A DNA stretch of 64,000 nucleotides from Christensenellaceae bacterium. Lineage in GTDB: Bacteria > Bacillota > Clostridia > Christensenellales > CAG-138. The stretch covers positions 1,048,883 through 1,112,882 of the forward strand of contig OY762962.1 of NCBI GenBank assembly GCA_963667195.1, read 5' to 3'. A model generated the notes under the pieces. The model was not told the origin of the DNA, made no database searches, and saw only the letters and a program-made list of their open reading frames with translations. Shown piece after piece: positions 8,111-53,406 of this stretch. Made by a program: the position numbers and the translations under genes. The first letter of the stretch is position 1. Each line of letters begins with the position of its first letter.

Positions 8111-9862
8111 ATGGCTTACCGCGCGCTCTACCGCCAATACCGCCCGACCCGCTTTGCCGATGTCATCGGGCAGGAGCACATCACAACCACACTGCGAAAT
8201 CAGGTGTCGTCGGATCGTCCGGCGCACGCCTATTTGTTCTGCGGCACGCGCGGCACGGGCAAAACCACCTCGGCGCGCATTCTGGCGCGCGCGGTCAACT
8301 GCCTCAGCCCCGAGGACGGCGAACCCTGCGGCAAATGCGAAGCATGTCTGATCACGGCAAGTGAGGGCGCTTCCGACATCACCGAGATCGACGCCGCGAG
8401 CAACAACAGTGTCAACGACGTGCGCGATCTCATCGAAAACGCGCAGTACGCGCCGCTCAATCTGCGCCGCCGCGTGTTCATCATCGACGAGGTGCATATG
8501 CTTTCGGGCGCGGCATTTAACGCGCTTCTTAAAACGCTTGAAGAGCCGCCGGAGCACATTCTCTTCATCCTCGCGACCACCGAGCCGCAGAAGCTGCCGG
8601 CTACGATCATCTCCCGCTGCCAGCGGTTCGATTTTCACCGGCTTTCAATGACAGACCTGAAAAAGACGCTCAAGAGCGTGCTGTCCCAGGCGGGCGCGTC
8701 GATCGAAGACGGCGGGCTCTCGCTGATTGCGCGCGCGGCGCAGGGCGGCATGCGCGATGCGCTGTCCCTCGCCGACCAGTGCCTCGCGTTCTGCGGAGAC
8801 AACGTGACCACGCAAAACGTCTACGACGTGCTGGGTAGCATGGAGGACGCGTTTTTATTCGATATGTCAAAGGCGCTGCTCGCCTCCAACGCACCGGACG
8901 CGCTGAGAAAGCTCGATTCCATCATGCAGGCGGGACGCGACCTTTCCGTCTTTGCCGCCGATCTCGCGGCGCATTTCCGCGCGCTGCTGCTGGCTAAGAC
9001 CTGCGGCAGATGCGAGGATTTATTGGACTGCACCGAGGACGAGATGACGCGCTATCTGGAGCAAGCCAAGGGTGCCTCCGAAGCGCGGCTGATGCTCGCG
9101 GTGGATCGCCTGATTGCGGCGCAAAACGACATGCGGTATCTGCCATCTCCACGCGCGCTGCTGGAAAGCGCGCTCATCCACATCTGCCGGCCGGAGGATT
9201 CCGTTTCGCTCGCGAATCTCGAATCGCGGCTCGACCGTCTGGAAGCGCAGATGAAGGATGGAATTCCGGCACAGGTTCCCGCAAAACAGAGCAGTGTGGA
9301 TGCACCTGCGGTGCAAGCCGCAAAGAAGGCGGAGCCAAAGCCCGCAAGGCAGGAACAGGCGCAGGACGAAGCCCCTTGGGCAGACCTGACCCCGCCGCCG
9401 GAAGATTGGCAGCCGGGCGAGACGTTTACCCCGCCTCCGCAGGAACCCGCGCCAAAGCCCGCGGCAACGCCCGCTCCCGCCGCAGCAAAGCACGAAACCA
9501 AACAGGAGGCGCACGCCGCCGCGCAGAAAGCAACGGCCGCGGCCGGTGCTTCCGGCGATCCCGCGGTGATCTGGCGCGAGGCGATTGCGAACATTCCCAA
9601 TATGTTCGTGCAGGCGCTGGCGAGGGAAGCGGTCGCTCTCCACTTTGAGCAAAACGCGCTGACGGTCGGATTCACCGAAGCGCAGGAGATGAAGCACAAG
9701 AGCCTTTCCGCGCCGATCAACTTTGAGCCGACACAGCGAGCATTGCAGATGGTCAAACCCGACGCAAAGCTCGTGATCACGACGACAAAAGCAGCCCCCG
9801 CAAGCGGACAGGCAGAAGAACTCGCCAAAGCGCTGTTCGGGGACAAACTCACGATACAGTAA
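8111..9862 (+). CDS. dnaX: DNA polymerase III subunit gamma/tau
   Basis: MAYRALYRQYRPTRFADVIGQEHI..., Walker A motif GTRGTGKTT and a zinc module CGKCEAC, with a Pro/Ala-rich linker; 583 aa. Confidence 0.95.
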   Translation: MAYRALYRQYRPTRFADVIGQEHITTTLRNQVSSDRPAHAYLFCGTRGTGKTTSARILARAVNCLSPEDGEPCGKCEACLITASEGASDITEIDAASNNSVNDVRDLIENAQYAPLNLRRRVFIIDEVHMLSGAAFNALLKTLEEPPEHILFILATTEPQKLPATIISRCQRFDFHRLSMTDLKKTLKSVLSQAGASIEDGGLSLIARAAQGGMRDALSLADQCLAFCGDNVTTQNVYDVLGSMEDAFLFDMSKALLASNAPDALRKLDSIMQAGRDLSVFAADLAAHFRALLLAKTCGRCEDLLDCTEDEMTRYLEQAKGASEARLMLAVDRLIAAQNDMRYLPSPRALLESALIHICRPEDSVSLANLESRLDRLEAQMKDGIPAQVPAKQSSVDAPAVQAAKKAEPKPARQEQAQDEAPWADLTPPPEDWQPGETFTPPPQEPAPKPAATPAPAAAKHETKQEAHAAAQKATAAAGASGDPAVIWREAIANIPNMFVQALAREAVALHFEQNALTVGFTEAQEMKHKSLSAPINFEPTQRALQMVKPDAKLVITTTKAAPASGQAEELAKALFGDKLTIQ

Positions 9863-9956
9863 CTGTAATTGTTATATAGTAAGTAAAGATAAATTCAGCA
9901 CGATACAGTAAATACAATAGTTAATAAGTAAAGATATTTTCAGGAGGAACTTTTTT

Positions 9957-10304
9957 ATGGCAAAAGGCGGATTTCCCGGCGGAATGGGCGGTATGGGCGG
10001 CGGCAACATGCAGCAGCTCATGATGAAAGCGCAGAAGATGCAGCAGGACGTGGCGCGCGCGCAGGCGGAGCTCAACGAGCGTGAGTTTGTCGCGAGCAGC
10101 GGCGGCGGCATGGTAACCGTCACCGTCACCGGCAACAAGGACGTGAAAGCCATCGTCATCAACCCCGCGTGCGTCGATCCCGACGACGTGGAGATGCTGC
10201 AAGACCTCGTGCTTAGCGCGGTCAACGAGGCACTCCGCACCGCGACCAAGACCGTTGAGGACGAAATCGGCAAGATCACGGGCGGTCTGGGGCTCGGCCT
10301 GTAA
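9957..10304 (+). CDS. ybaB: YbaB/EbfC family nucleoid-associated protein
   Basis: 115 aa with a Gly/Met-rich N-terminus and the canonical position between dnaX and recR. A GGAGG RBS precedes it. Confidence 0.9.
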
Positions 10305-15216: not shown

Positions 15217-16542
15217 TTATTGCGCATTGGTATTGATCAAGGGCAATATCTGCTCGATTGCCCCGGGCACCACGCTCACAATATCAATGCCGACGAACGT
15301 CGAACCACGCCGGTAGGTAAACAGCATCCCAATCACGCCGGTAGTCCCTTTTCGATCATCGAACCGATAGACGTAGCAATCTTGTCCCAAAACGGTTTCG
15401 CGGCTGAACGAGCCGTTCAGTACATCGACCTTGCCATCCTTGTCAAAGTCAAACAACCAAGGAAGAAGGGTGTCAAAGAAATCCCTGCCGGATACCGAGT
15501 CCATCCAGTTCCCGGTGGAATTCGCCGTGTAGATGAACACCATGTGCTGTATGTCTTTCTCGTAGCCGCAATACTCCAAGTCAAGATTGCCGTCCTTGAG
15601 AAAGTCCCGATATGCTTTGTTGCGCGCGTCCTCACCCGTCTCGCTCACAGTGACTTTGTTAAATTCGTCCAGCGTCTCGCGATTGTAGTATTCCCATCCA
15701 GCCGGACTGTCAAACTTCAGACCAAGGAACGCGCTGTCAAATCCTTTCTCTCCGATTTGCGGCATGCTGTAAGATTCGATGGAAGGATAGTCGCTGTATT
15801 GATAGAGGCTGTCGATCACATCCTGCAACATTTGTTCGCTCGGGCACATCAAATTGACATATGCAAACGTGCTATCCTTCTGAACGGCAAACAGCGCGCA
15901 ATAGCCGTATGCCGCATCCATGGGCAGTTCAAAGCGGGTCATCGGATGTTCGGTGTCTCCGAGCTTGATCGTATCCTTTCGAATATTCAACGCGTCGATC
16001 GTCCCGTCACTGCCAATGTCGCAAATCGAGGCAGCGTAGGCATCCACCGCTTCCTGTTCGGACAGAACCCCCGTTCCGTTATCCGAATTATCCTTGAGCA
16101 GGACGAGTATCATTTCGTTCGCGGATTTATTGTATCCAACATAATCATAGATGGTTTGTCCGTTCTTCAAGAGCGTTTGATATTCCTTTAAATACGCTTC
16201 CGCATTGCTCCCATCTGCCTTGATCATGTTTAGTAGATCGATATAGCTGCGATTGTAGGCCTTCCAACCATCGGGCAAGCGAAAGCCGAGGTCGAAATAC
16301 TTGCTCAAATAGCCAGTATCGTCACCTACACCCAATGAAAAGGAATCGACGTTCGGTTCCGGCGTTGGCGCGGGCGTCGGCGTTGGCGTGGGTGACGGTG
16401 TTGGCGTCGCGGTCGGCGTCGGACTTGGCGTCGGCGTAGGCGAAATCAGCTGCGCAAGGTCAGCGCAGCCAGTGAATGTAGCGAGCATGAATACCGCCAT
16501 CACCAGCGCGATGACGGTTTTGGTTCGATTGTACGTTTGCAT
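15217..16542 (-). CDS. lipoprotein with Pro/Thr linker and two tandem copies of an uncharacterised domain
   Basis: Start ATG at 16542 behind AAAGGAGAAAAA. Signal peptide and lipobox ...LATFTGC, with a PT-rich linker (about 16356-16446). Two homologous halves: FSLGVGDDTGYLSKYFDLGFRLPDGW... and GFDSAFLGLKFDSPAGW... Confidence 0.8.
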   Translation of the reverse strand: MQTYNRTKTVIALVMAVFMLATFTGCADLAQLISPTPTPSPTPTATPTPSPTPTPTPAPTPEPNVDSFSLGVGDDTGYLSKYFDLGFRLPDGWKAYNRSYIDLLNMIKADGSNAEAYLKEYQTLLKNGQTIYDYVGYNKSANEMILVLLKDNSDNGTGVLSEQEAVDAYAASICDIGSDGTIDALNIRKDTIKLGDTEHPMTRFELPMDAAYGYCALFAVQKDSTFAYVNLMCPSEQMLQDVIDSLYQYSDYPSIESYSMPQIGEKGFDSAFLGLKFDSPAGWEYYNRETLDEFNKVTVSETGEDARNKAYRDFLKDGNLDLEYCGYEKDIQHMVFIYTANSTGNWMDSVSGRDFFDTLLPWLFDFDKDGKVDVLNGSFSRETVLGQDCYVYRFDDRKGTTGVIGMLFTYRRGSTFVGIDIVSVVPGAIEQILPLINTNAQ

Positions 16543-16622: not shown

Positions 16623-17390
16623 TTATTTCACCACGTAGAAGGTCTTGAGAATTCCGTCGATGGTCGCGGGATCGACGGCGTCGATGATGATCATCGCAAA
16701 CGTTGTGCCCTGTTTGAGCACGAAGAACGCGCCGTTCATCTGCTTGCCGTTCGACTTCATGTCGTAGCGGTAGACGGGATGCTCCGTGCCGAGCAGATCG
16801 GTCACGACGAGCTTGAGGTTCTTCGCGTCGGATTTTGAATCGCCGTTGTAATCCGTCGCCCAAGTTTGCATCGCCTGCATGACCGCAAACTCGGTGTGCT
16901 GTGCCGATCCTTCGGAAGTGTAATCCAGCAAAATGATCATCATGTAATCATCGCCTTCATACGGCATCGCATAGAGATCATACACGAGCTTGCCCTGTTT
17001 GAGCATGTCGATGTATTCCTGAGTGATCACGGACGTGCTCTTTCCCGTCGTGTCGATTTCGTTCACGAGGTTCATCTGGTCCGGCGTATAGAGATACCAG
17101 TTATTCGGCGCGGGAAATCCGAAGCGGAAGTAGCTGTTGTAGTAACCATTCGGCCCGCCAAAGCCGAGCTTGAGAGAATCGACCGTCACCGCCGGAGTCG
17201 GACTCGGCGTAGGGCTCGGTGTGGGCGTGGGTGTCGGTGTCGGCGTCGGCGTCGGGGTCGGCGTCGCGGTCGGGGTTGCGGTCGGCGTCGGCGTTGGCGA
17301 AATTGCCTGCATGATCTCCGCGCAGGCGGTAAGCGACAGCATGCTCGCGAGCGCGAGCAGCAGCGCGATCGATCGGGTCAAGCGTTTCAT
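16623..17390 (-). CDS. lipoprotein paralog (single domain) with Pro/Thr linker
   Basis: RBS AGAGGAGAA, lipobox LSLTAC and a 36-aa (T/S)P linker. The domain begins LKLGFGGPNGYYNSYFRFGFPAPNNW. Confidence 0.8.
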   Translation of the reverse strand: MKRLTRSIALLLALASMLSLTACAEIMQAISPTPTPTATPTATPTPTPTPTPTPTPTPSPTPSPTPAVTVDSLKLGFGGPNGYYNSYFRFGFPAPNNWYLYTPDQMNLVNEIDTTGKSTSVITQEYIDMLKQGKLVYDLYAMPYEGDDYMMIILLDYTSEGSAQHTEFAVMQAMQTWATDYNGDSKSDAKNLKLVVTDLLGTEHPVYRYDMKSNGKQMNGAFFVLKQGTTFAMIIIDAVDPATIDGILKTFYVVK

Positions 17391-17427: not shown

Positions 17428-18171
17428 TCACGCTGTCATCGGCTGGAACATCGCGAGGAGCTCCGCCGTGTGATCCACGCCGACGGAGCTGACGTAGACG
17501 TTCATCATATAATCACCCTGTTGGAAGATGACCTGCGCGTCATACGTCGTGTATCCGCCGCTGTCGTAAGAGAAGAACCAACAGGACTGCTCTTTTCCAA
17601 GGAACATCGTCGTGGTGTGCTCGTCGCGCACGATCTCGGCTCCGGCACCGGTGAGCGCCTCGCGGATCAGCTTGATGTTCGCTTCGTGATAGTCCGCAAC
17701 GCTGCTAAACGCTGTCATCGCGTTCTTCGCGTCGCTGACGATAACGCTGATCTCCGCAAGCCCCGTGTTTAGGTGCGCGCTGTACTCCTGAACCGGCAGA
17801 CCCTTCGGCAGATAATCGAGGTATTCCGACTGGCGCAGATCCTTGGGAATCTCCATCGGGAAGCTGCTGAGGGTGTCCAGCTCGGCACTGGTGGCCACAA
17901 ACCATTTGTCGTTGAGATCGATTTTCATGTTGAAATACTCGTTTTGATAGGATAAACCCGTGCTCAATCCAAATGTGATCGGGTAGATTTCACGATAGGG
18001 TGTGGGGCTCGGCGTGGGCTCCGGCGTCGGCGTTGGCGCAAGGGTTGGCGTCGCCGTCGGCGTCGCGGTCGGCGTGGGTTCGATGATTGCCGTGATGCTT
18101 TGACAAGAGACAAGCGTGAACCCTGTGAGAATACACAACAGTAATGCGATGATTCTTTTTCGAAGCTGCAT
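17428..18171 (-). CDS. lipoprotein paralog (single domain) with Pro/Thr linker
   Basis: RBS GGGAGG, lipobox TLVSC and a PT linker. The domain begins ITFGLSTGLSYQNEYFNMKIDLNDKW. Confidence 0.8.
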   Translation of the reverse strand: MQLRKRIIALLLCILTGFTLVSCQSITAIIEPTPTATPTATPTLAPTPTPEPTPSPTPYREIYPITFGLSTGLSYQNEYFNMKIDLNDKWFVATSAELDTLSSFPMEIPKDLRQSEYLDYLPKGLPVQEYSAHLNTGLAEISVIVSDAKNAMTAFSSVADYHEANIKLIREALTGAGAEIVRDEHTTTMFLGKEQSCWFFSYDSGGYTTYDAQVIFQQGDYMMNVYVSSVGVDHTAELLAMFQPMTA

Positions 18172-18310: not shown

Positions 18311-18386
18311 CAAAAAAAGCTCCCCCAAATGGAGGAGTTTTGCTGGTAGCGTTGGGTCGCGTTACGCGAATGCGTGATAGATGGCC
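18311..18386 (-). repeat. displaced copy of the lysC 3' end (last 8 codons plus stop) and terminator
   Basis: The reverse complement encodes AIYHAFA*, identical to the lysC C-terminus with one synonymous change (GCA versus GCG). A CTCCTCC/GGGGGAG hairpin and T7 run are retained. Confidence 0.85.
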
Positions 18387-18395
18387 GCCCTTACG

Positions 18396-19550
18396 TTATC
18401 GCTTTTGGGGTTGCCCGTTTGCTGAAAACAAAGCATCCGGGTTGATTCCAACGAAGGTCTTCATGATATCATAGTTGACCGAGACGATCTTGTCCCGAGA
18501 CAATAACAGGTTCATCTCTTTCAGCTCGTCGAGATCTCTCCGAATCGTGCGCTCGCTTTTTACCGAGGCGTAGATGGACTTTGCCAATACATCTGTTCTC
18601 TTTAGTATTGCGCTTTCTTCGATTCTTAAGTCAAACTTCATCATTACACTGATCAATGCGTGCTGCCTTTGCGAGATTTCTTTGGTCTGAAATTTTTCTT
18701 CCACATAGTTCATAAAGCAAATGCGCGAATACTCCTGCATCACCTTGTCGAAATTCGCTTGCAGTTCGGAGCAAAATCCGTTGAGCGAGAACAAGACGAA
18801 ACGCTGCAAGTTACCATTGTACTTGAATCTTGCTTCATCCAGTTGCGAAAAATACTCATCTCTGTTCTTATAGTAGAAATTTGACAGTGAAAAGAAGCTT
18901 GCCTTGTTGTAATTGCTGTTGTACAGAATACAGTCTTCCAGCATTCTGGACGTTCTGCCGTTTCCATCGGAAAACGGATGGATCGTAACAAGATAGAAAT
19001 GCGCAACCACTGCGCGGATCAACTCTCCCCACCCTTTGACGGTGTCTGAATTGATATATTGAATAAACGCTCGCATCTGCTCTGGAATGTGCTCAAACCG
19101 TTCTCCTTCAAAGTTATGCCCGACTTTGATCTTCTGCAATCGATACTGCCCGGGGACATTATCGTTCTGTTTCAAACTGTCAGTGAGGATTGCATGGAGC
19201 TTCTTGATCATTTCTTCTGTAACGCAGCACTCGCCCGCACCAATCTTCTCGTCGATGATCGCGCGAAGTGCGCGATATGCGTTATAGGTCTCTCTCTCCT
19301 CGGAATCCCTTGGCGTTTGTCCGCGAATGATATCCTCAACCGCTTCCTCCGAAAGCGTATTGCCCTCAATCCCAGTCGTTCCTTTTACCTGATGAATAAT
19401 CTGCAGCCGATTCAGCTCCGTGTGGAGGCGCACGGTCAGCGGCGCCTTTGACAGGGCATCCTTCAACGTATCGATTCTCGCATTTAGAGCCGCGAGCTCT
19501 GGATCGAGAAGATCGATTCCCGCATCATACTTTATCTTCCAATATGACAT
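18396..19550 (-). CDS. Fic/DOC family protein (putative AMPylase)
   Basis: Fic motif HPFSDGNGRTSR and the N-terminal inhibitory-type motif TTGIEGN. The ORF is open to 19562 (GTG); ATG at 19550 is preferred. Confidence 0.9.
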   Translation of the reverse strand: MSYWKIKYDAGIDLLDPELAALNARIDTLKDALSKAPLTVRLHTELNRLQIIHQVKGTTGIEGNTLSEEAVEDIIRGQTPRDSEERETYNAYRALRAIIDEKIGAGECCVTEEMIKKLHAILTDSLKQNDNVPGQYRLQKIKVGHNFEGERFEHIPEQMRAFIQYINSDTVKGWGELIRAVVAHFYLVTIHPFSDGNGRTSRMLEDCILYNSNYNKASFFSLSNFYYKNRDEYFSQLDEARFKYNGNLQRFVLFSLNGFCSELQANFDKVMQEYSRICFMNYVEEKFQTKEISQRQHALISVMMKFDLRIEESAILKRTDVLAKSIYASVKSERTIRRDLDELKEMNLLLSRDKIVSVNYDIMKTFVGINPDALFSANGQPQKR

Positions 19551-19661
19551 TGTTTTTGTCACTCCACTATTTTAATATTTTTCAATAATTACAAGCGTTT
19601 TATATAAATTACATTACATTTTGTCAATATATTTGTCAACACATTATGCACAACAATTTTG

Positions 19662-19737
19662 CAAAAAAAGCTCCTCCGAATGGAGGAGCTTTGCAGGTTG
19701 CGTTGGGTCGCGTTACGCGAACGCGTGATAGATGGCC
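19662..19737 (-). repeat. gene-proximal copy of the 76-bp repeat (functional lysC 3' end plus terminator)
   Basis: Contains the lysC stop codon and the perfect hairpin AGCTCCTCC-gaat-GGAGGAGCT, followed on the minus strand by T7. Confidence 0.85.
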
Positions 19738-22432: not shown

Positions 22433-22538
22433 AGTCTTTCTTACCCCTCTTACACTTTGTTATTTATGGTCTGCCGCATCCGGTCGCTCCTCCGGTTGCT
22501 AAGCGGCATAGTTCCGCTGTTATAAACGTAATGCGGGT

Positions 22539-22567
22539 ATTATACCTTATATTTTTTTTGCTTTCAA
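22539..22567 (-). promoter_or_regulatory. sigma-70-type promoter for DUF1015-lysC
   Basis: On the minus strand: TTGAAA (22567-22562), a 17-nt spacer, then TATAAT (22544-22539). Confidence 0.55.
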
Positions 22568-22648
22568 TAATATCTGTCGCAATTTCGGACGTTTTGCAGA
22601 TTTATTCGATATATCTGCATATTACGCAAAACATATGTCGAAAACCCT

Positions 22649-22693
22649 TTATTCTCCGAGCGTTGCGACCATGACTGCCTTGATCGTATGCAT
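22649..22693 (-). repeat. displaced copy of the argF 3' end (last 14 codons plus stop)
   Basis: 42/45 identical to 22734-22778. Both copies translate to [14 protein letters not shown]. The three differences are all synonymous (GCA/GCG, CTC/CTG, GAA/GAG). Confidence 0.85.
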
Positions 22694-22701
22694 GCACTTC
22701 T

Positions 22702-22726
22702 ATATATATTTTTTTAAAATATATAT
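22702..22726. repeat. perfect all-A/T palindrome between the two argF 3'-end copies
   Basis: ATATATATTTT-ttt-AAAATATATAT (11-bp arms). Confidence 0.85.
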
Positions 22727-22733
22727 CTATAAA

Positions 22734-23717
22734 TTACTCTCCCAGCGTTGCGACCATGACCGCCTTGATCGTATGCATACGATTCTCCGCCTCGTCAAAC
22801 ACCACGCTGTGCTTCGAGCGGAACACCTCATCGCTGGCTTCCATCTCGCGGAGCCCGTATTTTTCGAAGATCTCTCTGCCGACAACCGTCTCCAGATCGT
22901 GGAAGCTCGGCAGGCAGTGCAGAAACAGCGCGTCCGGGTTACCGGTCTTCTGGAGCAAGTCCAGCGTCACGCGGTACGGCTCCAGCAGCTTGATTCGTTC
23001 CGCAAACTGCGCTTCCTCACCCATGGACACCCAAACGTCGGTGTACACCGCGTCCGCGCCGCGCACCGCGTCGAGAGATTCCGAAAACTCGATCACCGCA
23101 CCCGTGGATTTGGCGAGCTCCCGCATCCGCGCGGTCAGGCCCTCTTCCGGCCAGAGCGCGCGCGGGGCAATCGCTGTAAACTTCATGCCCATCTTCGCGG
23201 AGCCGATCATCAGCGAATTTCCTATGTTGTTGCGCGCGTCGCCGACATAGCACAAGTGAATCTCCTTCAGCGGCTTTTTCGCGTGCTCCTCGATGGTCAT
23301 GAAGTCCGCAAGAATCTGCGTCGGATGGTCGGTGTCGGTGAGCCCGTTCCAAACCGGCACGCCGGAGTAGCGCGCGAGGTCTTCCACGATCTGCTGACCG
23401 AATCCGCGGTACTCGATCGCGTCATAATAGCGACCCAGCACCTTCGCCGTGTCTTCCAGAGACTCCTTCTTGCCCATCTGGCTGTTGCTCAGATATGTCA
23501 CATGCGCGCCTTCGTCCAGCGCCGCAACCTCAAACGCGCAGCGGGTGCGCGTGCTGGTCTTGTCGAAGATCAGCACGATGTTCTTGTGCTTGAGGCGTTC
23601 GGGAAACACGCGCTCGCGCTTTTCGCGCTTGAGCGCGTGGCTCAGGTCGAGCAAGTAGCGAATCTCTTCGGGGGAATAATCGAGCAGGGTTAAAAAGCTT
23701 CTTCCGCGCAGGTTCAT
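22734..23717 (-). CDS. argF: ornithine carbamoyltransferase
   Basis: STRTR and HCLP motifs, with a GGAGG RBS upstream of the ATG at 23717; 327 aa. The position next to arcA suggests a catabolic (arcB-like) role. Confidence 0.95.
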
Positions 23718-23759
23718 AACTTCCTCCAAAAACTGTTATTCTGTTGTAATCTAGGGTTT

Positions 23760-24356
23760 TTATCTGAGTTTCATCAGTTCTTCTTTGACACCATCGATAT
23801 ATAACTCGTAGGACAGCCCGTCCTCTTGATAGGTACCCACATAATAGGTAAGCCCGTTGTAGGTAAACGCGGTTTCAAACACCGTTCCCTTGTTGTCCGT
23901 AATCGTCGCCGGGTTTCGATCCGTTTGCGCCATCGTGACCTGCACAAATCGCTCCTGCGTGCGCTGGTCTCCGCGGATGATTGCGCTGACGGCGTCCGAG
24001 AGCGCGTTTTCACGGCTGATATAGGTGGGACTCACGAGATAGAAGCGCCCGTTTTCCTTGTGTAATATGTCGCTAGAGCGATTGGACAGCACAAACGCGC
24101 TGTCTTCGCTCTCGATGGTGTACGAAAAATCCGCCGCACCGTATTGGTAATCGGTCGCCTGCACTGCGGTCGCAAAACCGCCGAACTCGTTTTCAAACGG
24201 CCACTGGTACAGAAACACGCCGACCACGAGAGCCGCCGCGCACGCAGACACGATGAAAAACGCACGCCGGAGCGCAAACGTATGCCGAAACACGGGAACC
24301 AGGATGAATGGAGACGCGAGCACAATCGCGATGAGGATTCGAATCAAGTCGTACAT
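23760..24356 (-). CDS. hypothetical membrane-anchored protein
   Basis: 198 aa with two N-terminal TM segments followed by a soluble domain. The RBS is weak and the start lies only ~20 nt after the upstream terminator's T-run. Confidence 0.5.
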   Translation of the reverse strand: MYDLIRILIAIVLASPFILVPVFRHTFALRRAFFIVSACAAALVVGVFLYQWPFENEFGGFATAVQATDYQYGAADFSYTIESEDSAFVLSNRSSDILHKENGRFYLVSPTYISRENALSDAVSAIIRGDQRTQERFVQVTMAQTDRNPATITDNKGTVFETAFTYNGLTYYVGTYQEDGLSYELYIDGVKEELMKLR

Positions 24357-24453: not shown

Positions 24454-24555
24454 TTTACTCTCTCCAGAGCGGCATGCTCATCTGCCATTTTATGGGCAAT
24501 CGCGTTTACTCCCGCCAGAGCGGCATACTCATCTGCCATTTAATGGGCAGTCGCG
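24454..24555 (-). repeat. two tandem 51-bp units, each containing a copy of the last 8 codons plus stop of arcA
   Basis: Units 24454-24504 and 24505-24555. The first 28 nt of each match 24556-24583 (25/28 and 28/28) and all translate MSMPLWRE*. The remaining 23 nt (ctgccattt[t/a]atgggca[a/g]tcgcg) hold a CTGCC/GGCAG inverted repeat. Confidence 0.9.
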
Positions 24556-24556
24556 T

Positions 24557-25765
24557 TTACTCCCGCCAGAGCGGCATACTCATACAGCGGGGACCGCCGC
24601 GCCCGCGCGAAAGCTCCGCCGAGGGAATCTCGTGCACGACGACTCCGTTGTCACGGAGGATGCCGTTTGTCACATAGTTGCGCGAAAAGGCGATCACCTC
24701 GCCCGGCGCCACCGCGAGGGTGTTCGTGCCGTCGTTCCACTGCTCCCGCGCGGCGTCGATTGCGCTCGCGCCGCCGCAGTGAATCATCGTCACCTTCTCC
24801 ACGTGCAGCGCGTCCGCCAGCGACTCGGCAAGCTTTCGCTTCTCCTGCTCGATGACCAGCGCGCCGCCCTGTTTCGTGAGCGAAAACGTGCGCACGGCGG
24901 GCAAGATCGACGGATGAATCGTGAACTTATCCACGTCCACCATGGTCATCACGGTGTCGAGGTGCATATAGGATCGCGTCTTGGGAATATCGATGGCGAG
25001 CACCTTGACGATGCCCGTCTCCTCGCAGATGAGCCTGCGCGCAAGCGCCTCCACCGCGTGGGGATCGGTGCGCTGCGAAATGCCGACCGCGACCACCTCC
25101 GGCGAGAGCACGAGCACATCCCCGCCTTCGATGGAAAACGGATCGGTGCGCATGTGCAGCATCGGCGTCTGCTGATAGAGCGGGTGGTGTATAAAGAGAT
25201 ATTGCCCAAACAGCGTTTCCCGCGCGCGCACGGTGTTCGCCATGCTGGAGATGCAGACCCCGCCGTCCACCATGAAGAACGGATCGCGCGTGAAATAGAG
25301 GTTCGGCATGGGATCAACGAAGAATGGATACGCGTCGTCGATATAATCCACGAGGTGAACAGGTTCCCGGCTGCCCAGATCGCTCTTGCGCACGCCGCGC
25401 ACCATGCTCGAGAGCATCTGCGGCACGGACTGTCCCAAGAGATATTCCCGCACGCGCTGCTCCACTCCACGGGCAGATATGCCAATTTCCGCGATATAAT
25501 CCTCCACAAATCGTTCCTGCACGGCGGTCTCCGTCAACGCTTCCGCCACGAGATCCAACAGATAGCAGACCTCCACCCCGCAGGAGCGCAGGGTTGCGGC
25601 AAACTGATCGTGCTCCTCGCGGGCATGCACGAGATACGGGATATCCTCGAACAGTTGGCGGGAGAGGTATTGCGGCATGAGGTTTTCCAGCTCCTGCCCC
25701 GGTCGGTGCAGCAGCACGCGCCTGAGTTTGCCTACCTCGCTCTTGACCCGAATGGGTGAATCCAT
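24557..25765 (-). CDS. arcA: arginine deiminase
   Basis: N-terminus ...VKSEVGKLRRVLLHRPGQELENL... and C-terminal catalytic region GGPRCMSMPLWRE; 402 aa. Confidence 0.95.
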   Translation of the reverse strand: MDSPIRVKSEVGKLRRVLLHRPGQELENLMPQYLSRQLFEDIPYLVHAREEHDQFAATLRSCGVEVCYLLDLVAEALTETAVQERFVEDYIAEIGISARGVEQRVREYLLGQSVPQMLSSMVRGVRKSDLGSREPVHLVDYIDDAYPFFVDPMPNLYFTRDPFFMVDGGVCISSMANTVRARETLFGQYLFIHHPLYQQTPMLHMRTDPFSIEGGDVLVLSPEVVAVGISQRTDPHAVEALARRLICEETGIVKVLAIDIPKTRSYMHLDTVMTMVDVDKFTIHPSILPAVRTFSLTKQGGALVIEQEKRKLAESLADALHVEKVTMIHCGGASAIDAAREQWNDGTNTLAVAPGEVIAFSRNYVTNGILRDNGVVVHEIPSAELSRGRGGPRCMSMPLWRE

Positions 25766-41317: not shown

Positions 41318-42208
41318 TCAGTAATCGATTCTAAAATAGTCCAGATATTTCTTGAACTGATCCTGCGCGGCAACGCAGGTTTCCCGCAGGTAGCCCCGCT
41401 CTTCTGGCCAGTTTTGCAGCCCGCGATAATAAAACATCTTGAGTTCATCGCCGATAATGAACGGGACAATGTTGTTGCGTAGGCATTCCTTGAACAAAAT
41501 CAGCCGGCCCACGCGCCCGTTTCCGTCCTGAAACGCGTGAATCCGCTCAAACCGAGCATGAAAGTCGAGAATGTCGTCCAGCGTTTTATTCGGGATGGCA
41601 TTATATACATGCAATAGCTTCTTCATCTCGTCCGAAACATCTTCCGGCGCGGTGGTCTGTTTACCGCCGACCTCGTTTGGCAGCCTCTTATAGCCGCCGA
41701 CGGCAAACCAGCTCTTGCGCGCGTCGCTCGTGCCGCTCTTCAGCGTCAGGTGCAGTTGCTTGATGAAATTCTCGCTCAGCGTGGCATTCGCCTGATCGAT
41801 GACACGATCGATACAGCGAAAGTGATTCGCGGTCTCCACGATATCGTCCACGTTGACGGAACCGCTGTCGGCTCCGATGGTGTTCGTCTCAAAGATATAG
41901 CGCGTCTGATCCTGCGTGAGCCTGCTTCCCTCTATGCGGTTGGAGTTGTAGGTCAGCTCAATCTGAACTTTGTGGTAGATGCCTCCGGGGAGATGCGCTT
42001 CCTTCTCCGCCCGGAGCCGATGCAGCAGCGTTTCCGGCGCGCTGTTCCGTTTGTTTACGCGCTCCGGCCGCTGTGCGCTTTCGGGAATGCTCCACGTCTT
42101 GCCCACGAGAAACGCTTGCGGAATCTTGCCGTTCGCGCAATAATTGCGCACCGTGCGCTCCGCAATACCCCAGCGCTTAGCCGTTTCCGCTACGGAAAGA
42201 TAGTTCAT
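41318..42208 (-). CDS. Fic family protein with N-terminal HTH DNA-binding domain
   Basis: HTH region YLSVAETAKRWGIAERTVRNYCANGKIP, inhibitory-type motif SNRIEGS and Fic motif HAFQDGNGRVGR. RBS GAAGGAGG upstream. Confidence 0.85.
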   Translation of the reverse strand: MNYLSVAETAKRWGIAERTVRNYCANGKIPQAFLVGKTWSIPESAQRPERVNKRNSAPETLLHRLRAEKEAHLPGGIYHKVQIELTYNSNRIEGSRLTQDQTRYIFETNTIGADSGSVNVDDIVETANHFRCIDRVIDQANATLSENFIKQLHLTLKSGTSDARKSWFAVGGYKRLPNEVGGKQTTAPEDVSDEMKKLLHVYNAIPNKTLDDILDFHARFERIHAFQDGNGRVGRLILFKECLRNNIVPFIIGDELKMFYYRGLQNWPEERGYLRETCVAAQDQFKKYLDYFRIDY

Positions 42209-42246
42209 GCCTCTCGCCTCCTTCATATACGTTCATCATAACACGT

Positions 42247-51508: not shown

Positions 51509-51597
51509 CTACCCCACAACAACCTTCCCCCGCTTCACAACCGCTTTCACCTGATTATTGCCCATGCGGTAGCAGAGCGGTTTCAGCCCGTCTTCAG
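51509..51597 (-). pseudogene. displaced, diverged copy of the hutI 3' end (about 29 codons plus stop)
   Basis: The reverse complement reads ...AEDGLKPLCYRMGNNQVKAVVKRGKVVVG*, versus the intact hutI C-terminus ...NADGMELICYRMGSNQVKAVVKRGKVVVS*. I counted 66 of 90 nt identical. It is in frame, with the stop at the equivalent position. Confidence 0.75.
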
Positions 51598-52173: not shown

Positions 52174-53406
52174 TTATGAAACGACGACCTTTCCCCGCTT
52201 GACCACTGCCTTCACCTGATTGCTGCCCATGCGGTAGCAGATCAGCTCCATGCCGTCCGCATTCCAAAGGGTCAGGTCGGCTTGCTTGCCGAGCTCGACG
52301 GAGCCAAGACGTTCGCCGAGGCCGATTGCGCAGGCGGCGTTGAGCGTCAGCGCGGTGAGGGTTTCCTCCGGTGTCATGCGATAGCGCAGGTACGCGAGGT
52401 TTGCAGAGAGCTGGAGGTTCAGCGACGGGCACGAGCCAGGGTTAAAATCGGAGGCCACCGCCACCGCGACGCCGCGAGAGATCATCTCCCGCGCGCGGGC
52501 GAAGTTTTTGTTGAGGTAGAGCGAGGTCTGCGGCAGCAGGCACGCGGTGACGTTGCCCGCGGACAGCGCAGAGATGCCGCTGTCGTCCGTCGCGATCAGG
52601 TGCTCCGCAGAGATTGCGGAAAGTTCACCCGCGAGAACCGCTCCGCCGATGGCGTCGATCTCGTCCGCGTGAATCTTGAGCCCAAAGCCCAGAGAACGTG
52701 CGGTTTCCAGCACGCGCCTGCTCTGCGCCACGGAGAACACACCCGTTTCGCAGAACACATCGCAATATTGCGCGAGGTTCTCCTCCACCACACGCGGCAA
52801 AATCTCGCCGCAAACGACGTCCACATACGCGTCCGTGCGCCCGGCATACTCCGGCGGAACCGCGTGCGCGGCCATACAGGTTGCGACGACGTCCATCGCG
52901 TGCGACTCGTTCAGGCGGCGGATCACGCGGAGCTGCTTGCACTCATGCTCCAAATCCAGCCCGTAGCCGCTCTTGATCTCCGTCGTAGTCACGCCAAAGC
53001 GCAGCTGCTCGTCGAGAAACGCGCTCGCGCGCGCAAACAGCGCGTCCTCGTCCAACGCGCGCGTCTGGCGCACGGTATCGAGAATGCCGCCGCCCGCTTG
53101 CAGAATCTCAAGATAGCTCGCGCCCTTGAGCTTGAGCGGAATCTCGTGCTGCCGCCAGCCGCCAAAGACGAGGTGCGTGTGCGCGTCCACCCAGCCGGGC
53201 GTGACGAACGCGCCGCCCGCATCCAGCCGGGTTGTGTCCGGCGGGCAAGGCAGCAAAGCGTCGTCCTGCGTGATCGCGACGATGGTTTCGCCGTCGATGA
53301 GCACGCTGGCGTTGCGATACTTCATGTTTTCACCCTGCGCGGTTCCCCGCAGGCTCGTGCTGCCGACGGGGGTTTGCAGGAGGCCGATGTTGTGGATGAG
53401 GAGCAT
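52174..53406 (-). CDS. hutI: imidazolonepropionase
   Basis: Amidohydrolase fold with VTPGWVDAHTHLVFGG...; 410 aa. It is the last gene of the hut cluster. Confidence 0.95.
   Translation of the reverse strand: MLLIHNIGLLQTPVGSTSLRGTAQGENMKYRNASVLIDGETIVAITQDDALLPCPPDTTRLDAGGAFVTPGWVDAHTHLVFGGWRQHEIPLKLKGASYLEILQAGGGILDTVRQTRALDEDALFARASAFLDEQLRFGVTTTEIKSGYGLDLEHECKQLRVIRRLNESHAMDVVATCMAAHAVPPEYAGRTDAYVDVVCGEILPRVVEENLAQYCDVFCETGVFSVAQSRRVLETARSLGFGLKIHADEIDAIGGAVLAGELSAISAEHLIATDDSGISALSAGNVTACLLPQTSLYLNKNFARAREMISRGVAVAVASDFNPGSCPSLNLQLSANLAYLRYRMTPEETLTALTLNAACAIGLGERLGSVELGKQADLTLWNADGMELICYRMGSNQVKAVVKRGKVVVS

Follow-up and report, generated by a model that had tools for sequence, protein, structure and literature searches.

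Integrases commonly target the 3′ ends of genes and supply a replacement end, with tandem att arrays arising by accretion, and in rhs/cdiA loci displaced "orphan" C-terminal modules lie downstream of the toxin genes. Homology-facilitated illegitimate recombination during the uptake of foreign DNA was reportedly described by de Vries and Wackernagel in 2002, and insertion with long target duplication is said to have been described by Nobusato et al. in 2000. Here, we analyze a 64-kb stretch of DNA from a Christensenellaceae bacterium (contig OY762962.1, positions 1,048,883 to 1,112,882; hereafter the window), in which the 3′ end of the ornithine carbamoyltransferase (OTC) gene is followed by a short spacer and a second copy of itself. 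We consider the best explanation, at a probability of roughly 0.6, to be that a foreign gene-end allele with a short hairpin flank recombined into this locus and displaced the resident OTC end. The architecture matches that of insertion with long target duplication, in which repeats of >30 bp, some of them overlapping gene 3′ ends (46-bp repeats), are recognized by comparison with an insert-free related genome and no mobility genes are present (PMC2853133). Such insertions are seen mostly in naturally competent species, and the release and re-invasion steps of the proposed life cycle lack experimental support (Furuta, Abe and Kobayashi 2010, PMC2853133).

The features on which the argument turns are these.
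22734..23717, minus strand: OTC gene, 327 residues, Pfam OTCace_N and OTCace; its last 45 nt are copy A1.
22734-22778, minus strand: A1, the in-gene copy of the OTC 3′ end, interpreted as the incoming and currently functional end; weaker similarity continues to 22786.
22694..22733, minus strand: the inserted spacer, 40 nt and 12.5% G+C, made up of TTTATAG, an A/T palindrome (11-bp stem, 3-nt loop) and AGAAGTGC.
22649-22693, minus strand: A2, interpreted as the displaced ancestral OTC 3′ end, a noncoding relic joined to the conserved downstream flank.
22568..22648, minus strand: the native flank "y" downstream of OTC, conserved in every lineage, insert-bearing or insert-free.

The OTC gene starts at the ATG at 23717 and encodes 327 residues, the length found in all relatives; the TTG at 23729 is the wrong start. 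Read on the minus strand, the gene ends ...GAGAATCGT ATGCATACGATCAAGGCGGTCATGGTCGCAACGCTGGGAGAGTAA and is followed by the 40-nt spacer, TTTATAGATATATATTTTAAAAAAATATATATAGAAGTGC, and then by the second copy, ATGCATACGATCAAGGCAGTCATGGTCGCAACGCTCGGAGAATAA, with a start-to-start distance of 85 nt between A1 and A2. The 45-mer ATGCATACGATCAAGGCGGTCATGGTCGCAACGCTGGGAGAGTAA (22734-22778) has one further match in the window (22649-22693, three mismatches) and none, at up to three mismatches, in 100 dinucleotide-preserving shuffles of the window. An earlier note on this DNA, made from the sequence alone, had recognized this downstream duplication, and it is real; with two window copies only, the 45-mer is probably not the dispersed repeat that the note had named as the alternative. 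The three differences between the copies (GCG/GCA, CTG/CTC and GAG/GAA) are, as had also been noticed, all synonymous, so that both copies translate to the same 14-residue peptide. The weight that had been placed on this pattern is not supported, since three synonymous-only differences are weak evidence alone, with a chance estimate of ~0.06 if the functional copy also drifts at silent sites (0.24 was used as the synonymous fraction). The perfect 11+3+11 A/T palindrome, ATATATATTTT-NNN-AAAATATATAT (22702-22726), is present as described and is single copy in the 64-kb window, where it sits inside the longest A/T-only run (26 nt versus 15 nt for the runner-up); the window measures 56.0% G+C rather than the about 62% that had been given for the genome.

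The earlier note had the repeat start exactly at an ATG codon. Within the window the repeat can be followed for 53 nt at 89% identity, with residual AGAA..G similarity upstream of the ATG, and in the relatives' loci L082 and L086-L089 it begins with GCGGAAAACCGC, 12 nt before the ATG; the comparable repeat at lysC, described below, contains no ATG at all. The OTC repeat probably once reached about 8-12 nt upstream of the ATG, and for this reason the ATG boundary is no defining feature.

The closer relatives (80-88% nucleotide identity) are uncultured Eubacteriales/Clostridiales metagenome-assembled genomes that were retrieved via exact-protein look-ups. Look-ups with the window's own OTC (331 and 327 residues) and arcA returned no match, and there is therefore no same-species insert-free site for the A/T type of insert found in the window. 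GTDB representatives reach an OTC identity of ≤74%, and the OTC repeat was found in 0/80 of these species in a genome-contig scan. Among the closer relatives the OTC-to-DUF1015 spacer is conserved, and the insert is polymorphic for presence and absence: the insert-free loci L081, L084/85, L090/91, L092/93, L094/95 and L096 all align to window A2 plus flank, and the insert-bearing loci (the window, L097, L082 and L086-89) carry an extra 5′ block that corresponds to A1 plus spacer. Because the insert-free loci align to A2 and its flank, A2 is, on this alignment, the original OTC end, and A1 with the spacer is the inserted block. The earlier note had proposed aligning the OTC loci of relatives; that the downstream copy is the ancestral one and the in-gene copy the newcomer was not foreseen there. 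An origin by slippage, as a simple tandem duplication, was rejected, since it would repeat the spacer after the second copy, yet the native flank follows A2.

The closest OTC relative, L097 (93% amino-acid and 84% nucleotide identity), carries the A/T-type insert of the window. Its spacer is identical to that of the window at 30/40 positions (manual count) with an imperfect palindrome, and L097 shares CTG/CTC and GAG/GAA among the window's A1/A2 differences. This diverged A/T arrangement in an independent metagenome assembly, together with the occurrence of a second, G+C type of insert (below) in several samples and assemblers and with copies that differ mutually, so that collapsed or duplicated reads are no explanation, makes it extremely improbable that the duplication is the misassembly against which the earlier note had cautioned, whether an assembly artefact or a chimeric join; two features that would favor an artefact are that the L087 contig ends within the repeat array and that L096 may be a chimera at this conserved stretch. 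In L097, A1 is intact and A2, MYTINAVIVVTLGE, has four nonsynonymous changes (H>Y, K>N, M>I and A>V); judged by these changes, the downstream copy is a decaying relic and no conserved mini-ORF.

The decay of A2 in L097 bears on the possibility that the module has been retained for a function, with the hairpin, placed between the arc genes and DUF1015-lysC, acting to terminate transcription, stabilize mRNA or bind a protein, or with A2 translated as a mini-ORF. The earlier note had raised both the terminator and the mini-ORF, and neither is supported. The A/U hairpin folds with only -5.7 kcal/mol in the window and -1.6 in L097, is followed by AGAAGUGC without a U tract, and is not among the terminator-like sites called in a terminator scan of the window; an intrinsic terminator, which needs a G+C-rich stem and a U tract, was accordingly rejected for this all-A/U stem. 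No ribosome-binding site, nor any Shine-Dalgarno-like sequence, precedes A2 in the sequence read, the module is missing from many lineages and from same-species strains, and no Rfam family matches the OTC repeat region at E<1. A function would agree with the keeping of the module over about 16% nucleotide divergence (window versus L097) despite its direct repeats, with the partly preserved palindromic character in L097 and with one compensatory change in the hairpin of the G+C type, but we regard it as very unlikely. Given the weak A/U hairpin without a U tract, an A2 that lacks a ribosome-binding site and is decaying in L097, and the absence of the module from many lineages, we read the OTC module as a scar and not a device, and its persistence leaves some room for a selected role.

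The second insert type, in L082 and L086-L089, has an unrelated G+C spacer of about 66 nt that contains CTTTGTAG and then GGGGMGGAT-ATC-ATCCKCCC, and the two types sit within about 10 nt of one OTC position. The G+C hairpin shows a compensatory C:G to A:T change between lineages, and its motif, also written TTTGTAGGGG-hairpin-CCCGC, occurs two times, inverted, in the lysC-lyase spacer of L084; because of this inverted pair we assign the hairpin, by its sequence, to a REP (repetitive extragenic palindrome)-like family. The layouts of the two spacers are alike, with TTTATAG, an 11-bp stem and a 3-nt loop in the window and TTTGTAG, an 8-bp stem and a 3-nt loop in the relatives. The tie that a common "TTT-RTAG plus hairpin" would provide is weakened because L097 has TTAG ahead of its palindrome, where the window has ATAG. 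Members of a REP-like family of the form CTTTGTAGGGG-hairpin-CCCGCG lie in L084 (10041-10063, minus strand, and about 10153-10180, plus strand), L082 (11015-11037) and L086 (7017-7039); they show compensatory stem changes between copies, form an inverted pair once, in an intergenic spacer, and were not found in the window.

A same-species comparison is available for the G+C type. In the species of L086 and L088, the OTC protein ends in TLGD, TLSE or TLGE; the insert-free loci L094/L095 (TLSE) are 100% identical to A2 plus flank of L088, which is 122 nt longer. A1 and A2 of L088 differ at 8/54 nt, stop codon included. Within OTC, L088 and L094 differ at one site in nt 1-380 and at 30 sites in nt 383-984, and past the insertion/deletion there is one difference over the next ~1.1 kb. 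Because the differences cluster in nt 383-984 of OTC and then stop after the insertion/deletion, the latter marks, on this distribution, where a tract of homologous recombination with a donor about 5% diverged ends on the right, with A2 as the right-hand homology. This event may have been a gain or a loss, either direction being possible. A further locus at this site, L096 (2029-3103), has the OTC body of the L086 species, and its last codons and downstream flank are one mismatch in about 90 nt (manual count) from A2 plus flank of L082; it may have arisen by recombination between species at the OTC 3′ end, or the contig may be chimeric.

This tract is a difficulty for a palindromic mobile element (REP-like or MITE-like) that would have entered the OTC end by staggered breaks about 50 nt apart and fill-in, leaving a long target-site duplication whose copies then drifted. 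In the same-species pair A2 equals the insert-free site and A1 does not, and upstream of A1 the differences carry on through a 600-nt tract; target-site duplication by a transposon or MITE was rejected for the G+C type on the ground that only A2, and not A1, matches the insert-free site. In three independent cases the stop codon is also where the repeat ends, all 97 loci fetched lack the A/T palindrome, its extended 30-nt version has no exact match in the viral contigs scanned, L097 departs from RTAG, and the window holds no gene for a REP-associated tyrosine transposase (RAYT) and no IS200-type gene. What a mobile element would account for is the hairpin in every spacer, the tag, stem and 3-nt loop that window and relatives share, the compensatory change and inverted recurrence of the G+C hairpin, and the presence of two different spacers at nearly one site. 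GTAG-tagged palindromes form a known repeat superfamily, REPs often abut stop codons, and a text search of the survey that covers them showed no mention of duplication of the adjoining gene end (PMC3733652). On balance, we think such an element unlikely.

L087 carries at least two tandem units, and its middle copy, which a second spacer follows, combines a 5′ part of A2 with a 3′ part of A1; this is the composition that unequal crossover would be expected to produce. Within A2, the switch from donor-type to resident-type sequence lies at different points in L086 and L088. These differing crossover points leave no fixed core, as would be needed if A1 and A2 were attL and attR of an element that had integrated site-specifically into the OTC 3′ end and whose interior was deleted to 40 nt, that is, a remnant like a cis-mobilizable element (CIME). 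The established habit of integrases of targeting and replacing gene 3′ ends, and att accretion, would suit such a remnant, as does a newcomer upstream with the relic downstream. We consider it highly doubtful, because no integrase occurs in the window or in any cassette, three neighboring genes would require three different specificities, the spacers of just 24-66 nt hold little beyond a hairpin, and the recombination tract extends about 600 nt into OTC, well past an att core. Recombinases are not detectable more broadly: Pfam scans of all open reading frames (ORFs) in the 64-kb window found no integrase, transposase, reverse transcriptase, Cas1 or RAYT, and the gene content is that of an ordinary chromosome (radA-like, dnaX, mutY-like, hut genes, aconitase and others). 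Two other mechanisms were rejected. A diversity-generating retroelement, which would alter only template adenines, does not fit differences of which one of three is C/G and all are synonymous, in a window without a reverse transcriptase, and CRISPR-like off-target spacer integration does not fit repeats and spacers of varying length, spacers that are copied within an array, and a window in which no cas genes were found.

Among all window ORFs of ≥150 residues, only three genes have a repeated 3′ end, namely arcA, OTC and lysC, all within 7 kb. The two sister cases are as follows.
24455..24606, minus strand: the arcA 3′ end, ATGAGTATGCCGCTCTGGCGGGAGTAA, 27 nt, in three copies (24557-24583 in the gene, 24506-24532 and 24455-24481) separated by two 24-nt hairpin spacers.
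18311..19737, minus strand: the lysC/Fic cassette, in which 76-nt repeats (19662-19737 and 18311-18386) flank a Fic-family gene (18396-19562).
The likeness to lysC/Fic that the earlier note had pointed out is borne out, as arcA and lysC/Fic share the architecture and OTC is a cargo-less version of it. Repeat lengths are 27, 45-57 and 76 nt and spacer lengths 24, 40 and 66 nt; inside any one array, the spacers are mutual copies. For arcA and for both OTC insert types, the stop codon marks the end of the repeat to within 1 nt. Such arrangements are otherwise rare: an "ORF end repeated downstream with a stop codon" occurs once in 1.37 Mb of 80 other species and 9 times in 165 kb of this clade, in every case at arcA, OTC or lysC, and the OTC repeat has two copies in the window and in relatives occurs at OTC only.

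The arcA repeat encodes MSMPLWRE* and begins directly after the conserved Cys codon of the C-terminal motif of arginine deiminase (ADI). Compared with the in-gene copy, the distal one has AGT>AGC and CGG>AGA, the latter a synonymous Arg change that takes two steps, and it matches the allele type of the single copy in L084. Relatives have one or two arcA-end copies, with more than one only where a gene for a 198-residue protein follows. Slippage-type tandem duplication, rejected above as the origin of the module, does explain the array expansions seen in the three-copy arcA and in L087. The 198-residue protein itself (23760-24356, minus strand, between arcA and OTC) is a predicted membrane protein without a Pfam match; its gene is present in the window, L081, L092 and L097 and absent from L082, L084, L086 and L090.

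The 76-nt lysC repeat consists of the last 25 nt of lysC and the terminator, reaching 51 nt beyond the stop codon, and the Fic-family gene between the repeats has its own A/T-rich promoter. L090 has the same cassette at a near-equal offset (30-nt tail at +1318, compared with +1321 in the window); of the other lineage loci, the six that contain lysC lack it. The lysC repeat occurs only with Fic. Divergence of the Fic cassette between the window and L090 is as large as that of the flanking genes, and in both, the two lysC-end copies within a genome share that genome's own 3′ untranslated region, a pattern that indicates concerted evolution or spread by recombination. A second Fic-domain protein, with an HTH_17 domain, is encoded elsewhere in the window (41318-42226, minus strand).

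If a foreign gene-end allele displaced the resident OTC end, the incoming segment would have come from a related lineage and comprised that lineage's OTC allele end together with the stop codon and a short 3′ flank that closes with a hairpin. On the left, the junction would be ordinary homologous recombination within OTC. The right junction would lie about 45-57 nt upstream of the resident stop codon; we infer that the founding one was probably an illegitimate joining at microhomology next to the hairpin, which would then mark the breakpoint on the donor side, and later ones would be homologous crossovers inside the relic copy. The resident gene end would in this way be displaced rather than replaced and become a noncoding relic. 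From then on the A1-spacer-A2 module would be an insertion/deletion polymorphism and, because it has OTC sequence on both sides, could be passed between lineages by homologous recombination; it would expand to tandem arrays through unequal crossover and be lost via recombination between copies, the relic otherwise decaying neutrally. A repeat that ends at the stop codon would be expected from such a history because the copies are alike only as coding orthologues before nonhomologous flanks, an end point that staggered-cut duplication would not predict.

Several observations speak against a displacing foreign allele. Among the loci compared, none had OTC and the spacer without the relic, the state expected of a donor lineage. 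The A/T type of the window was compared without a same-species insert-free genome, and its three synonymous differences are compatible with a true in situ duplication; the sister pair L082/L084 gives a weak recombination-tract signal against 5-10% background divergence. That two unrelated spacers lie within about 10 nt of the same OTC position hints at some preference for the site, which would not follow from a purely random illegitimate event, and the hairpin near the relic copy in every spacer might be the active agent. The arrangement has been kept across the window-to-L097 divergence despite direct repeats, which could mean selected retention. Finally, the lysC repeat runs 51 nt past the stop codon through the terminator, and the stop-codon argument is void there.

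Set beside published insertions with long target duplication, the OTC locus shares direct repeats of >30 bp (here 45 nt, or 53 nt at 89%) that flank an insert (here 40 nt), a single repeat copy with matching flanks at the insert-free site (L081, L084, L090, L092 and L094; a same-species site for the G+C type only), overlap of the repeat with a gene 3′ end and the lack of mobility genes (window Pfam scans); the repeat may also be unique in its genome, as the published ones are, having two copies in the 64-kb window and occurring in relatives at OTC only. Its repeats likewise come close to, but fall short of, identity with one another and with the insert-free site, and can drive amplification. 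It differs in cargo, which in the published cases is restriction-modification genes and here a 40-nt palindrome at OTC, a 24-nt hairpin at arcA and a Fic gene at lysC, and in that the upstream copy here, by the same-species comparison of the G+C type, is a foreign allele with a ~600-nt recombination tract; for the G+C type at least, "duplication" is for this reason the wrong word. Homology-facilitated illegitimate recombination resembles the proposed founding event, in that one homologous anchor in a conserved gene and another end joined at microhomology would give a foreign gene end and flank on resident sequence. In published cases, resident DNA is reportedly deleted as a rule rather than duplicated. 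With the rhs/cdiA orphan modules the locus shares a new 3′ end that takes over and an old end pushed downstream as a relic that keeps a short conserved upstream stretch; those are large toxin/immunity modules under diversifying selection, whereas here a housekeeping enzyme retains the same peptide over 45 nt. The TTTGTAG and G+C hairpin of the relatives' spacer, which recur elsewhere including as an inverted pair, resemble the GTAG-tagged REP/RAYT systems (PMC3733652, PMC2817692); the window palindrome, unlike these, is all A/T, follows ATAG (TTAG in L097), is single copy in 64 kb and has no RAYT in the window.

Other features of the neighborhood lie outside the insertion. The next element downstream of the native flank is as follows.
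22433..22567, minus strand: a sigma-70-like promoter, TTGAAA-17-TATAAT (22539-22567), with the structured leader of the DUF1015-lysC genes; context, outside the insertion.
This promoter and its roughly 110-nt leader are almost invariant in eight lineages whose coding DNA is 80-88% identical, and the leader holds a nested stem, GCCGC/GCGGC around TCGG-AGGAGCGA-CCGA, with no Rfam match; the leader may be a cis-regulatory element not yet described. GGCGTCGGCGTT-type repeats with a 12-nt period form three blocks about 800 nt apart (16343-16458, 17176-17315 and 17999-18102) downstream of the Fic cassette, in and around ORFs without a Pfam match and in a region of lower G+C (about 40-55%). Just past dnaX lies an A/T-rich direct repeat, CACGATACAGTAA...TAGTAAGTAAAGATA, in two copies with a 49-nt period (9850-9948). 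A 77-nt direct repeat of 81% identity (51516-51592 and 52181-52257, 665 nt apart) falls in ORFs of low G+C3 without a Pfam match, possibly tandem paralogues.

A more far-reaching proposal, which we offer tentatively and think unlikely to be correct, is that the hairpin and gene-end module is a minimal, enzyme-free selfish unit with the gene-end copies as built-in homology arms or, in a stronger form, that a hairpin-directed process repeatedly makes such modules at arc-operon gene ends in this uncultured Clostridia clade. If true, the unit would use host recombination to invade any related genome irrespective of the downstream sequence, multiply through unequal crossover and persist; it would be the counterpart, without cargo, of the "virus-like life cycle" put forward by Kobayashi for restriction-modification genes.

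The architecture class is already known; what differs here is the cargo (none, or Fic) and the foreign-allele upstream copy. For insertion with long target duplication, the OTC locus provides a natural series of unusual clarity, with no insert, an insert, a tandem array and a decayed relic, both with and without cargo, and in at least one case there is direct sequence evidence that a recombination tract brought in the upstream "duplicate" as a foreign allele. For annotation, short, perfect copies of gene ends lying just downstream are better taken for displaced recombination relics than for mini-genes or terminators. For this clade, the displacement of resident gene ends by foreign alleles would mean that conserved gene ends act as recombination breakpoints that take in accessory DNA, here a Fic gene, the gene for the 198-residue membrane protein, and hairpins.

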